From assembly GCA_945889445.1 (NCBI GenBank), contig CAMDBX010000002.1, positions 2,041 to 66,040 on the forward strand: DNA of 64,000 bases, given 5' to 3'. The notes under the pieces were generated by a model that did not search any database, was not told where the DNA came from, and saw only the letters and a program-made list of their open reading frames with translations. Shown here in pieces: positions 10,285 through 21,493 of this stretch. Every line of letters starts with the position of its first letter. The first letter of the stretch is position 1. Position numbers and translations under genes: made by a program. This stretch comes from Rhizobium sp. Q54 (lineage in GTDB: Bacteria; Pseudomonadota; Alphaproteobacteria; Rhizobiales; Aestuariivirgaceae).

Positions 10285-10485
10285 ATGGTGGCGGACGAGG
10301 CCTCGCAGGCCGGCTTCCGTGACTTTGCCAAGGCGATCGAGGCCGCCCTCGGCGGATTTCTGGCTGCCTTGCCCCCTGATCAGCAGGAAAACGCCCTGCG
10401 ATTATCTTATGAAATCGCTTTAGGCTGCGGGGATGATGGCGAGGAACCTGCCCCGCCCCGCCTTCGTCTGGTCTATTCGCGCTAG
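10285..10485 (+). CDS. Possible small hypothetical protein (66 aa)
   Basis: Only the 3' third of the 143-aa track ORF (10054-10485) has GC-rich third codon positions like neighbouring genes (MVADEASQAGFRDFAKAIEAALGG...). No recognisable family and no clear SD. Confidence 0.25.
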   Translation: MVADEASQAGFRDFAKAIEAALGGFLAALPPDQQENALRLSYEIALGCGDDGEEPAPPRLRLVYSR

Positions 10486-12004
10486 AAGTCGGTTTTTTCG
10501 CCGCCCTCGCTGATCCGGCGGGCCACGAAGGCGTCGATCTGTTCGAGGGCTGCGGGGTCCAGCCAGGGTTCGCGATATTCACCCAATGCCTGCTTCCACA
10601 GAGCATTGGCTTTTTTCTCGGCAGTGGGCGATCCGGCTGCCTGCCAGCTCTGGAATTTGCGCCAATCCGAGATCAGCGGCTGGTAAAAGGCTGTCGAATA
10701 GCGCTCGAGTGTTTGCTGCGCGCCGAAGAAATGGCCACCCGGCCCCACCTCCATCATGGCATCGAACGCCATCTCGGCGTCATCCACCACCACGGGCTTG
10801 AGGAATTCCTGCATCATCTGCAGCAGGTCAACGTCAAGGGCGAACTTCTCGTAGGAGGCGACGAGGCCGCCCTCCAGCCAGCCTGCCGCATGCTGGATGA
10901 TGTTGCCGCCACCCATGATGGCGCCCCACAGCGAGAACACCGTCTCTTAGCCGCCTGCGCATCCACGCTGTTGGCAGCATTGGTGCTGGAGGTACGGTAG
11001 GGCAACTTGTAGCGCCGCGCCAGTTGCCCACCGATGACGCAGGCCTTCATGTATTCCGGCGTACCGAAGGCGGGCGCTCCTGACTTCATGTCGACGTTGG
11101 ATGTGAAGCCGCCATAGACAAAGGGTGCGCCAGGCCTGACGAGCTGCGACAGGGCGAGCCCCGCCAGCGCCTCGGCATTCTGTTCCACCATGCCACCCGC
11201 GATCGACACGGGCGCCATGGCGCCGAGCAGCGTGAAGGGCGTTACCACCACAATCTGGTTCAGCCGCGCCATCTCGATGATGCCCATCGCCATCGGCATG
11301 TCGAGCTTCAGCGGCGAATTGGTGTTGATCACCGTATAGACGGAGGGCTCGGCCAGCAGCTGCTCATGGCTGATGCCGCGCGCCAGCCTGACGATCTCGA
11401 CGCCGTCGAACAGACGGGCCCGGCCCGTCGCATACACAAAGGAAACCTTGTCCGAATACACCATCTTGTTGCGCGTGATGTGCAGGTGCCGCACCGAGGC
11501 ATGAACGTCAAGCGCATCGACGGATGCACCGCCCGCCGTGTGCACGGTGTTGAAGAACTGCGAAAGCTTCACGAAGTTGCCCGCATCCTCGAGCGTGCCG
11601 GGGCGCCGACCCCTGTCGAGGTCTGAGCAGTTGGGCGGGCCGCCCACCGGCGCGAAGGCGATCCAGTTGCCACCCACCCGAATGTTGTGGGCCGGGTTGC
11701 GCGCATGGAAGGTGAACTGGGCGGGTGGCGTCTTCAGCGCCTGCTCGGCGATGTCGCGTCCAATCCGGACGCGGTCGCCATCGACCAGCGCTCCAGCCTT
11801 CTGCAAGATGTCGCGGGCCTCGGGCAGCAGCACATCCATGCCGATCACCTCGAGAACCTTCATCGACTGGCGATGGATGGCCTCGATCTGGTCGTCGGAC
11901 AGGATGCGCGTAGGCTCCAGCGTGTGCTGGGGCTGCTTCCAAGGCAATTGCTGGATCGGGGTGTGCGCGGCGTCGGCCCGGCGGCCACGACGCTGGACGT
12001 TCAC
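10482..12004 (-). pseudogene. MttB-superfamily (COG5598) methyltransferase paralog, disrupted by a 1-nt frameshift near 10945
   Basis: Track ORFs 10814-12274 (N-part) and 10482-10940 (C-part) are colinear with the intact paralog at 13842-15404. The GTG start at 12004 overlaps the psuG stop (GTGA). Restoring one G in AAG-AG gives ...DAQAAKETVFSLWG..., compared with ...DAQAAYESVFSLWG... in the paralog. Confidence 0.85.
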
Positions 12005-12921
12005 GTAGCGCGACCGGCGAAGGCGACGGCAATGGCCGCTGCAATCTTCGCATTGTGTTTGACGAGGGCGATGTTGGCCGCAAGAGATCGGCCAGCCGTC
12101 ACGCCCGCGATCTCGGCCAGCAGGAAAGGGGTTGTCTCCTTGCCCATGATGCCATGCGCTTCCGCCTTCTTCACTGCGGCCTTGATGACCGGCGCGATTT
12201 CGGCAGCCGGAATCTCCGCTTCCGACGGAATGGGGTTGGCGACGACCACGCCGCCCTTCAGCCCCATCGCCCACTTGGCACGCATCACATCCGCCACCTC
12301 TGCGGGCGTGGCGCAGCTCATCGGCACCGCATGGCCGCTCTCCCGTGAGTAGAAGGCTGGAAATTCCGTCGTGCCCAGGCCAATCACCGGCACGCCCAGC
12401 GTCTCCAGCGTTTCGAGTGTGAGTGCGAGGTCGAGGATGGCCTTGGCGCCCGCCGTCACCACGGCCACGTCGCTCGCCGCGAATTCCATCATGTCGGCGG
12501 AGATATCGAAAGTCTTCTCTGCACCCCTGTGCACGCCACCGATTCCGCCGGTGGCAAAGACATGGATACCCGCCATCGCCGCGATGCGCATGGTGGAGGC
12601 AACCGTCGTCGCCCCGTCCAGCTTCTGCGCCACGATGAAGGGAAGGTCACGCACCGACACCTTGGCAATGGAACGGCCTTCGCGCCCGAAACGGTCCAAC
12701 TCCTCCGCCGTAAGCCCCACCTTCAGCACGCCGCCGATGATGGCGATGGTGGCGGGCACCCCACCGCCTTCGCGCACGATGTCTTCCACCGCGCGGGCCG
12801 TCTCCACGTTCTGCGGGTAGGGCATGCCATGCGCGATAATGGTCGATTCGAGCGCCACCACGGGGCGCACCTCATCGAGGGCGCGGCGGACCTCAGGCGT
12901 GAAGGACAAGGGATAGGCCAC
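12001..12921 (-). CDS. psuG: Pseudouridine-5'-phosphate glycosidase
   Basis: 306 aa. Motifs shared with E. coli YeiN as I recall it: VVALESTIIAHGMPYPQN, ATIAIIGG, GATTVASTM, FATGGIGGVHRGAE and TFDISADM. The GTG start lies 9 nt after the psuK stop, with GGAG between. Confidence 0.9.
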   Translation of the reverse strand: MAYPLSFTPEVRRALDEVRPVVALESTIIAHGMPYPQNVETARAVEDIVREGGGVPATIAIIGGVLKVGLTAEELDRFGREGRSIAKVSVRDLPFIVAQKLDGATTVASTMRIAAMAGIHVFATGGIGGVHRGAEKTFDISADMMEFAASDVAVVTAGAKAILDLALTLETLETLGVPVIGLGTTEFPAFYSRESGHAVPMSCATPAEVADVMRAKWAMGLKGGVVVANPIPSEAEIPAAEIAPVIKAAVKKAEAHGIMGKETTPFLLAEIAGVTAGRSLAANIALVKHNAKIAAAIAVAFAGRAT

Positions 12922-12930
12922 GTCGACTCC

Positions 12931-20045: not shown

Positions 20046-20140
20046 GGGATTCATCTGTATTCTACGTTTCAAGTGCCCGAGACGGAGCCCCTGCCTTCGC
20101 CAGGGTGACGCCACCAAAGAGGATTTTCTTGGGTGGCGCC

Positions 20141-20776
20141 TCAGGCGCGCGCCTTCAGGTCGCGCTCCAGCTCGCCATAGCCGGTGTAGCGATACTCATA
20201 GGCAAGACCCAGGCGCTTGGCCGCCGCCATCGCCTTCTTGGCCAGTTCCTCGTTGCGCGTCTGCGCCAGGAACACGATCTTGGTATAGTTCCCGAAATAG
20301 AGCGGCAGCAGCTCCGGGTGCCGATCCATCCCCAGCCCCTCCCAGATCAGCTTGTCGAAGTGCCGCGCCAGATAGTCGGTGAGGAAGAAGCCTGTCACAT
20401 CCTCCTCCGCCGTGCTGGCGAAGGTCTCCTGACTGGAGAAGAACGCATAGCAATGCGGGCCTTCGAGGCGCTCGATCCCCTCCTCCGCCAGCAGCTTGTC
20501 GATGTCACCACCGGTGCCGCAATCGCCATAGAGCACGAAGATCGACTGGTAGCGGGGCTTGGCTTCCCTGATTTTCTCGCGCAGGGCCGGCACGATCTTG
20601 TCGGGCGTGTTGTGCCACTTGGCAGGCAGGCACTGCAGGTCGAAGGCCGTCCAGCGGTTGCGCTCGATCAGATCCACGATCTCGCGGCCCAAAGCACCGC
20701 AGGCCAGGAGAAGAACCTTCCCCTGGCCTGGCTTGAACTCGAATTCGTCAGATGGCTTGAGATTGACAAGGGTCAT
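20141..20776 (-). CDS. DUF1638-like protein
   Basis: 211 aa. VLLLACGALGREI...LPAKWHNTPDKI...VLYGDCGTGG...GPHCYAFF matches my recollection of the DUF1638 pattern (..AC..L..E...LH..P..L...YG.CG...). It starts 15 nt after the corrinoid-protein stop, preceded by a GGGAGG SD. Confidence 0.65.
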   Translation of the reverse strand: MTLVNLKPSDEFEFKPGQGKVLLLACGALGREIVDLIERNRWTAFDLQCLPAKWHNTPDKIVPALREKIREAKPRYQSIFVLYGDCGTGGDIDKLLAEEGIERLEGPHCYAFFSSQETFASTAEEDVTGFFLTDYLARHFDKLIWEGLGMDRHPELLPLYFGNYTKIVFLAQTRNEELAKKAMAAAKRLGLAYEYRYTGYGELERDLKARA

Positions 20777-20791
20777 GAAGACCCTCCCAAA

Positions 20792-21493
20792 TCAGTTGGC
20801 CGTGAGCTGGTTGTGCTTCTTCGCCATGTAGCTCTTGGCGGTTTCGACGGCCACCGCCGCGTCGCGGCAATAGGCGTCGGCACCAATGGCCTTGGCGAAG
20901 TCCTCGTTCAGCGGTGCGCCGCCGACGAGAACCACGTAGTCGTCGCGCATGCCCTTTTCCTTCATGGTGTCGATCACGACCTTCATGTAGGGCATGGTGG
21001 TGGTGAGCAGCGCCGACATGCCGAGGATGTCCGGCTTGTGCTCTTCCATGGCGGCCAGATACTTCTCGACCGGGTTGTTGATGCCGAGGTCGATGACCTC
21101 GAAGCCGGCGCCTTCCATCATCATGCCGACGAGGTTCTTGCCGATGTCGTGGATGTCGCCCTTGACCGTGCCGATCACCATCTTGCCCTGGCGCGGGGCG
21201 CCCGTGGCGATGAGCAGCGGGCGAAGGATGGTCATGCCGGCCTTCATCGAGTTGGCGGCCAGCAGCACTTCCGGAACAAACAGGATGCCGTCACGGAAGT
21301 CGACGCCGACGATGCGCATGCCCTCGACGAGGGCTTCGGTCAGCACCTTGTAGGGGGTCCAGCCGCGCCCCAGCAGAATGTGAACCGCCGCCTCGACCTC
21401 TTCCTTGAGGCCGTCATAGAGGTCGTCATGGACCTGCTGTACCAGTTCCTCGTCATTGAGGGAGTTCAGGTCAAGTTCACCATCATCGCTCAT
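20792..21493 (-). CDS. Corrinoid (cobalamin-binding) methyl-carrier protein
   Basis: ATG at 21493 preceded by GGAGA. 233 aa with a helical cap domain followed by a B12 Rossmann domain. The domain shows GDIHDIGKN (DxHxxG), GMSALLTTT and VLVGGAP. Confidence 0.9.
   Translation of the reverse strand: MSDDGELDLNSLNDEELVQQVHDDLYDGLKEEVEAAVHILLGRGWTPYKVLTEALVEGMRIVGVDFRDGILFVPEVLLAANSMKAGMTILRPLLIATGAPRQGKMVIGTVKGDIHDIGKNLVGMMMEGAGFEVIDLGINNPVEKYLAAMEEHKPDILGMSALLTTTMPYMKVVIDTMKEKGMRDDYVVLVGGAPLNEDFAKAIGADAYCRDAAVAVETAKSYMAKKHNQLTAN

Follow-up and report, generated by a model that had tools for sequence, protein, structure and literature searches.

In a stretch of 64,000 nucleotides (nt) from Rhizobium sp. 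Q54 (contig CAMDBX010000002.1 of assembly GCA_945889445.1, positions 2,041-66,040, forward strand), hereafter referred to as the window, we analysed a probable locus for cobalamin-dependent methyl transfer, in which genes of the MttB methyltransferase family are clustered with the gene of an MtgC-type corrinoid protein and with two genes encoding proteins of the homocysteine methyltransferase family PF02574. Pfam was run on every open reading frame of the window with a plausible GC content at third codon positions (GC3), and family calls were made with NCBIfam models and their cut-offs. Close homologues of the window's proteins are those of Aestuariivirga and of metagenome-assembled genomes (MAGs) of the Aestuariivirgaceae, within the Hyphomicrobiales, and the order of the locus is collinear in these relatives. 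The genes under study are listed below (aa, amino acids; Pyl, pyrrolysine).

10482-12004, minus strand: mttB1, MttB-family pseudogene; Pfam MTTB on both halves, 1-nt loss at ~10948
13842-15404, minus strand: mttB2, non-Pyl MttB-family methyltransferase; PF06253, 663 bits
16517-18094, plus strand: mttB3, divergent non-Pyl MttB member; PF06253, 353 bits
18096-18755, plus strand: 219-aa Fe-S protein with two [4Fe-4S] motifs; eight invariant Cys, no Pfam match
18760-19665, plus strand: 301-aa PF02574 (S-methyl_trans) protein of the His-type subfamily; Pfam match, GGCCG at residues 283-287
19662-20045, plus strand: GFA-family zinc/thiol protein; PF04828
20141-20776, minus strand: DUF1638 protein; PF07796
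20792-21493, minus strand: MtgC-type corrinoid protein; PF02607 (B12-binding_2) and PF02310 (B12-binding), GDIHDIGKN (DxHxxG)
26143-27159, minus strand: MtgE/Bmt orthologue, canonical Cys-type homocysteine module; PF02574, 221 bits; NF005718, 515 bits at a cut-off of 338

The four genes from mttB3 to the GFA gene follow one another at distances of 1 nt and 4 nt and, at the last junction, with an ATGA overlap, and the DUF1638 gene begins 15 nt past the stop of the corrinoid gene. An earlier note on this DNA had described these junctions, the GGCCG motif of the 301-aa protein, the corrinoid protein with GDIHDIGKN and its DUF1638 neighbour, and three MttB genes, one of them frameshifted and none with an in-frame TAG. 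The PF06253 matches together with a codon check, the Pfam results and the sequence itself bear out this description, and the MTTB, B12-binding, DUF1638, S-methyl_trans and GFA domains, for which the note had proposed searches with hidden Markov models, were all found. Its observation that a pterin-binding gene is lacking likewise holds for the 64-kb window, in which Pfam detects neither PF00809 nor the MetH activation domain PF02965 and in which six-frame tblastn with the MtgD, RamA-like and MetF2 proteins of Sinorhizobium meliloti returns no match.

The corrinoid protein is 82% identical to the cobalamin-binding protein of the S. meliloti Mtg locus and matches PDB 1y80 at 4e-54, the DUF1638 protein is 52% identical to the S. 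meliloti protein adjoining MtgC and the product of 26143-27159 shares 57% identity with S. meliloti Bmt, on account of which we regard these three as orthologues of the S. meliloti proteins. The 219-aa Fe-S protein (42%), MttB2 (41%) and MttB3 (25%) also have S. meliloti counterparts at these identities. In the S. meliloti record CP090106.1 (3.7 Mb; L083) a block encoding a RamA-like protein (ASKHA), MtgD, MetF2, DUF1638 and MtgC reads divergently from an MttB gene, downstream of which lies a gene annotated as 'ferredoxin', with bmt a few kb off, and Paracoccus aminovorans has the same core layout. MtgC, DUF1638, an MttB gene followed by a member of the same Fe-S family and a nearby MtgE are thereby common to S. 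meliloti and the window; S. meliloti differs in having adjacent MtgD, MetF2 and RamA-like genes, in lacking the His-type PF02574 and GFA genes, and in that the MttB encoded beside its Fe-S protein belongs to the MtgB type (Y, R and H kept, see below) and not to the MttB3 type. The record itself is labelled 'S. meliloti plasmid pSymB', yet with 3.72 Mb and with bmt, mtgC and mtgD it is probably a mislabelled chromosome. For the DUF1638 protein, a homologue search brought back only sequences at least 90% identical, and its AlphaFold model has a predicted local distance difference test (pLDDT) value of 57.

Systems of this composition have been studied genetically. Phaeobacter inhibens makes methionine via separate PF02574, PF00809 and corrinoid proteins and also needs a RamA-like protein and the DUF1638 protein, the gene of which immediately follows that of the corrinoid protein, DUF1638 being cofit with the split MetH (Price et al. 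2018; bioRxiv 10.1101/192971). Ruegeria pomeroyi requires MtgC and MtgD to make methionine as well as to grow on glycine betaine, its MttB-family MtgB proteins are induced on N-osmolytes and MtgE (PF02574) is the homocysteine module; mtgD, essential for betaine growth, is unlinked, as is the RamA-like gene, and S. meliloti 'Bmt', of a type without betaine-binding residues, was reread as MtgE (Mausz et al. 2025; PMC12478193). A 2025 preprint restates the same model for P. inhibens. Since these three works describe it, the 'MetH in pieces' fed by MttB modules, as which the earlier note had read the locus, is a published model: the architecture was recognised correctly, but the route is not uncharacterised as the note had supposed, being represented by the split MetH of P. 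inhibens and by MtgBCDE of R. pomeroyi and S. meliloti (bioRxiv 10.1101/192971, PMC12478193). Nor is 18760-19665 the only homocysteine module, as had been claimed, the MtgE orthologue at 26143-27159 having been overlooked.

A close parallel is the MtgBCDE system of R. pomeroyi DSS-3, also an aerobic member of the Alphaproteobacteria, which has several non-Pyl MttB genes together with a single MtgC, DUF1638 and a stand-alone MtgE and in which a shared methyl-corrinoid joins amine demethylation to methionine synthesis. Compared to it, the window lacks MtgD, a RamA-like gene and the full betaine-binding residue set and adds the cassette of Fe-S, His-type PF02574 and GFA genes, and with it a second homocysteine-type module. 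With the split methionine synthase of P. inhibens the window shares a DUF1638 gene immediately downstream of the corrinoid gene, PF02574 as an independent protein and the lack of a MetH activation domain; that system, however, was defined for methionine synthesis and has a pterin subunit, whereas the window is dominated by MttB genes and has none. In classical MetH the homocysteine, pterin, B12 and PF02965 activation domains form one polypeptide, whereas the window's modules are separate genes, PF00809 and PF02965 being missing. MtgB/MtgC/MtgA of Desulfitobacterium hafniense and the Eubacterium limosum paralogues also have non-Pyl MttB proteins methylating a cognate corrinoid protein, which several paralogues share, but in these anaerobes the second methyltransferase (MT2) depends on tetrahydrofolate (THF) or coenzyme M and a homocysteine module is absent.

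Like MmuM/YagD and BHMT, the 301-aa protein has a homocysteine domain of (beta/alpha)8 architecture, ~300 aa long, that carries GGCC and a conserved Glu, and it differs from both in its corrinoid context, in a His in place of the first zinc Cys and in its scores. It lies under every NCBIfam cut-off (best 148 bits against 453), including the MmuM equivalog model NF007020 (112 bits against 215) and the Bmt model NF005718 (82 against 338), the BHMT-type model which the product of 26143-27159 passes, and the three-Cys zinc site of MmuM/YagD and BHMT is absent from it. Within its family, which comprises 255 clusters at E <= 1e-30 among 1.84 billion representatives, the canonical 'NC' zinc motif is changed to 'MH[T/S]', with Met in 110 and His (His221) in 118 of 121 members, while GGCCG and the homocysteine-binding hallmarks DGGxGT and Glu157 are retained. 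His221 aligns exactly with the first zinc Cys of Escherichia coli MetH and MmuM; HMMER and hhalign place it 1-4 residues off, in a stretch that is still without Cys. A Trp (W37), considered as a mark of donor-binding enzymes of the MmuM/BHMT type, was rejected because Trp is also found in E. coli MetH and in MtgE.

When the aligned family of the 301-aa protein was searched against one genome per species, 80 loci were obtained. In ~45 of these the order Fe-S, PF02574, GFA is kept (identity of the His-type methyltransferase 45-87%), nearly all of the hosts being Hyphomicrobiales or other alphaproteobacterial MAGs. The GFA gene lies 3' of PF02574 in all 36 cassettes with downstream room and mttB3 lies 5' of the cassette in 30 of the 31 counted loci with upstream room; cassettes without mttB3 are those of L036, L041, L057 and L062, in two of which a corrinoid gene (L041) or an MttB2-like gene (L057) stands upstream in its place. 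These ~45 cassettes always sit within MttB/MtgC neighbourhoods. The expected conservation of the neighbourhood accordingly holds for them, but not for the remaining 35 distant homologues from other phyla, which occur singly, with no MttB, corrinoid or DUF1638 gene beside them. Clustering of the neighbours of these 35 yielded no recurrent corrinoid partner and MetY-like genes in five loci only, and Pfam on the immediate neighbours in five further loci gave a heterogeneous picture. Distant homologues adjoin MetY-like, PALP and class-V aminotransferase genes, and such neighbours, together with the retained binding hallmarks, speak in favour of an acceptor that is homocysteine or a similar amino-acid thiol. 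For the methyl donor, the gene context favours the methyl-corrinoid, while the wider distribution of the family makes S-methylmethionine (SMM) or S-adenosylmethionine (SAM) possible.

The 219-aa protein has eight invariant Cys in two ferredoxin-type motifs. Its sequence matches MMACHC/CblC (E 0.06-0.09) and QueG (E 0.009-0.24) weakly, and the only meaningful Foldseek matches of its AlphaFold model (pLDDT 65) are MMACHC, QueG and NpRdhA. CblC is thus among its top fold matches, and QueG and RdhA share the module of two [4Fe-4S] ferredoxin motifs; compared to QueG and RdhA the 219-aa protein is much shorter, passes no family model and is encoded among methyltransferase and cob genes instead of among tRNA or dehalogenation genes. 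Homologues lie 3' of an MttB gene in the Mtg loci of S. meliloti and Paracoccus. A further homologue (~35% identical) on a plasmid of Methylibium petroleiphilum PM1 (472442-473062; L085) is the last gene of an operon of btuFCD-like, cobO, cbiB, cobD, cobQ, cobT and cobS genes for cobalamin salvage and biosynthesis, which gives independent support for a cobalamin-related role. We infer that the 219-aa protein is most likely an accessory protein that binds, processes or reduces cobalamin. It goes unnamed in Price et al. 2018 and Mausz et al. 2025.

Of the MttB paralogues, mttB1 has Pfam MTTB matches at 10482-10940 and 10814-12274 (minus strand), and a Tyr codon is cut to 'AA' at ~10948, leaving 1523 nt compared to 1524 nt in L001. 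Alignment to the intact 507-aa orthologue of L001 has this one gap only, and the gene is intact in more distant relatives too. The identical lesion recurs in four metagenome assemblies that are independent of one another (L086-L089), so that mttB1 is a pseudogene and the lesion no read error. Neither mttB2, mttB3 nor either part of mttB1 has an in-frame TAG, and the in-frame UAG at the active site of Pyl-dependent trimethylamine MttB is therefore missing; mttB3 has Met at the pyrrolysine position. An Rfam PYLIS_3 match within mttB3 (17574-17672, plus strand; 45 bits at a gathering score of 38) was rejected as a pyrrolysine signal, since UAG is lacking and the UAG-GCU-GAC of the model aligns to AUG-UGC-GAC; the match reflects nucleotide-level coding homology to genuine Pyl-MttB. 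By bit scores against PDB MtgB, Pyl-MttB and 4yyc, mttB2 is closest to 4yyc (399; D. hafniense MtgB 336) and mttB3 is equally distant from MtgB (204) and Pyl-MttB (203), the identities to D. hafniense MtgB being 37% for MttB1, 37% for MttB2 and 28% for MttB3.

The betaine site of D. hafniense MtgB consists of Y97, R312, H348 and F356, R312 being kept in every characterised member that uses acidic quaternary amines (PMC13080624). The residues at these positions, read from the alignment with the MtgB numbering checked against the chain of PDB 9yce, are as follows.

S. meliloti and Paracoccus MttB beside MtgC: Y, R, H, G
MttB1: G, R, H, G
MttB2: A, R, H, G; carboxylate-binding Arg and His kept
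MttB3: G, G, E, L; all four MtgB residues lost

This pattern suggests that the substrate bound by MttB1 and MttB2 is probably still a methylammonium compound with a carboxylate, though not the canonical betaine, and judged from the same residues MttB3 is not a betaine-type enzyme. Orthologues of MttB3 (45-58% identical; L090-L092) are encoded in S. meliloti, R. pomeroyi and Roseovarius indicus, with a LysR regulator and DMGDH-like flavin adenine dinucleotide (FAD) oxidoreductases of ~800 aa nearby; the R. pomeroyi cluster (L091, megaplasmid NC_006569.1, 339771-357285) additionally has a class-III aminotransferase and a thiamine pyrophosphate (TPP) enzyme. From their gene content these clusters look like ones for the stepwise N-demethylation of a trimethylammonium compound.

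The domains, the orthology to S. meliloti, the Paracoccus layout, the genetics of P. inhibens and R. pomeroyi and the conservation of the cassette are best explained by a model according to which the locus is the Aestuariivirga form of a modular methyltransferase of aerobes that depends on cobalamin and serves as a split methionine synthase as well (MtgB/C/D/E, RamA-like protein, DUF1638), and we put the probability of this reading at roughly 0.7. MttB2 and MttB3, mttB1 being dead, would move methyl groups from methylated amines to the Co(I) of the shared MtgC, and the resulting methyl-Co(III)-MtgC would be unloaded by PF02574 proteins onto homocysteine to give methionine, certainly by the MtgE of 26143-27159 and probably by the product of 18760-19665. 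Alternatively, a pterin-binding MtgD presumably encoded outside the window would pass the methyl group to THF for C1 oxidation. DUF1638 and a RamA-like ATPase, likewise presumed to be encoded elsewhere in the genome, would keep the cobalt reduced, and the CblC/QueG-like 219-aa protein would most likely bind, process or reduce cobalamin for the system. Several observations weigh against this reading. The 64-kb window is without MtgD and a RamA-like gene, and in none of the three MttB paralogues is the full MtgB betaine-binding set present. The 301-aa protein is equidistant from MtgE (72 bits), MmuM (72) and MetH (61), its relatives outside its own clade have no corrinoid neighbours, and canonical MtgE co-occurs with it in at least 12 loci, because of which we consider it an additional module and no replacement. 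The structural model of the 219-aa protein is moderate (pLDDT 65, template modelling score 0.44, Foldseek E 3e-3 at a probability of ~1).

The missing MtgD could be taken literally, the purpose of the locus then being a strictly THF-independent transfer from amines to homocysteine with 18760-19665 as its only MT2. The translational coupling of mttB3 to the PF02574 gene, the conservation of their cassette, the lack of a pterin-binding gene in the whole window and the lack of MtgD within 10 kb in the closest relatives L001-L009 are in line with it. Nevertheless, the lack of a THF-dependent MT2 can be stated for the window only: beside the same cassette, MtgD and/or a RamA-like gene occur in seven related loci, both of them in L030, L032, L034 and L050 and a RamA-like gene without MtgD in L036, L039 and L049, in each case within 10 kb. 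As these genes occur in related loci and are unlinked in R. pomeroyi, where mtgD is essential for growth on betaine (PMC12478193), their absence from 64 kb is weak evidence for THF independence. Moreover, the canonical homocysteine module at 26143-27159 contradicts a single MT2, and homocysteine is no catabolic methyl sink for growth. We therefore judge the strict form improbable, while direct transfer from amine to homocysteine through the shared methyl-corrinoid is plausible as one of the branches and not as the only route.

The other alternatives concern the genes behind mttB3. The 301-aa protein might be an MmuM/HMT-like enzyme taking its methyl group from SMM or SAM, its place in the operon reflecting housekeeping of the methionine/SAM cycle; it equals E. 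coli MmuM in size and in the missing C-terminal extension, its BLAST score is the same for MmuM and MtgE, the Joint Genome Institute (JGI) labels some homologues SMM-dependent methylases, and several of the 35 distant homologues without MttB, corrinoid or DUF1638 neighbours lie by sulfur-amino-acid genes. This is the most serious of the competing explanations, but it is still doubtful: the score is about half of the MmuM cut-off (112 against 215 bits), the first zinc Cys is His in 118/121 members, the gene in Hyphomicrobiales always lies within MttB/MtgC loci behind the B12-type Fe-S protein, and a gene for an SMM transporter is not found nearby. Human CblC dealkylates methylcobalamin using a thiol, which speaks for another possibility, namely that the trio of Fe-S protein, His-type methyltransferase and GFA protein is self-contained and that the Fe-S protein shuttles the methyl group on cobalamin, or dealkylates or repairs it, with a built-in electron supply. 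Its gene stands between those of the first methyltransferase (MT1) and MT2, where corrinoid protein genes usually sit, its fold family binds B12, the GFA and PF02574 proteins are both zinc-thiol proteins, and the genes are together in all 36 testable loci. Yet the structural evidence for the fold is weak, MtgC is close by in many cassette loci, and homologues of the Fe-S protein lack the two partner genes in S. meliloti and Paracoccus and accompany cob genes in Methylibium, which favours a general role in B12 processing; we judge the self-contained trio the least likely of these explanations. Slightly less remote, though still unlikely, is the bolder proposal that the trio behind mttB3 forms a new corrinoid methyl-transfer module of aerobes, in which the CblC/QueG-like Fe-S protein would hold or regenerate cobalamin through an electron path of its own and the His-Cys-Cys zinc enzyme would pass methyl groups of a non-betaine MttB substrate to homocysteine or another amino-acid thiol independently of THF and possibly of RamA.

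Within the preferred reading, a split methionine synthase of the Mtg type, three components look new: the CblC/QueG-like 219-aa protein, the His-for-Cys subfamily of PF02574 and an MttB3 without betaine residues. The locus would extend MtgBCDE, described mainly for marine bacteria, to freshwater and soil Hyphomicrobiales, and the B12-type Fe-S protein conserved in the loci of S. meliloti and Paracoccus suggests that the published Mtg parts list is incomplete. This is the first link between a large His-type branch of homocysteine methyltransferases and a corrinoid system; if the 301-aa protein does use the methyl-corrinoid, it would constitute a second, regulated entry of amine methyl groups into methionine and SAM. 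The MttB3 type, without the betaine carboxylate site and encoded in roseobacter clusters that resemble stepwise N-demethylation pathways, points to a non-betaine substrate class for aerobic B12-dependent demethylation.

The remaining genes of the locus belong to the mttB2 strand.

12001-12921, minus strand: PsuG-like (Indigoidine_A) gene within the mttB2-mttB1 unit; PF04227, 421 bits
12931-13842, minus strand: PfkB-family kinase, pseudouridine-kinase-like; PF00294, start overlapping the mttB2 stop by 1 nt
15408-16334, minus strand: GcvA-type LysR regulator; Pfam HTH_1 and LysR_substrate, NF008352 with 303 bits at a cut-off of 288

The LysR gene, 3 nt upstream of mttB2 and divergent from mttB3, forms one tightly overlapping unit (10482-16334, minus strand) with mttB2, the PfkB kinase, the PsuG-like C-glycosidase and mttB1. 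The kinase reaches 167 bits on the NCBIfam pseudouridine kinase model, the cut-off of which is 540. A PsuG-like gene lies beside an MttB2-type gene in ~25 related loci, in ~9 of which a second MttB gene flanks it. Riboswitches are absent from the window at Rfam gathering thresholds, and a promoter and terminator scan of 15300-21800 gave counts no different from the shuffle level. Divergent from mtgC, a cysteine-desulfurase-like class-V aminotransferase is encoded at 21655-22899 on the plus strand (TIGR01976, 479 bits at a cut-off of 352), and a class-V aminotransferase gene is also found immediately 5' of the His-type PF02574 homologue in an Ilumatobacteraceae MAG (L045). The mtgE gene is flanked on its own strand by an AAA_21/AAA_15 ATPase with a weak PtuA-like match (25328-26092) and by a metallo-beta-lactamase-fold gene (27202-28287); both are also present in the same-species assemblies L086-L089 and, being missing in L001 and L002, appear to be recent insertions. 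Further along, a DMSO-reductase-family molybdopterin oxidoreductase, a four-cluster ferredoxin subunit and a DmsC-like anchor are encoded at 28023-32587 (minus strand), a sign that the presumed aerobe may be capable of anaerobic or alternative respiration.

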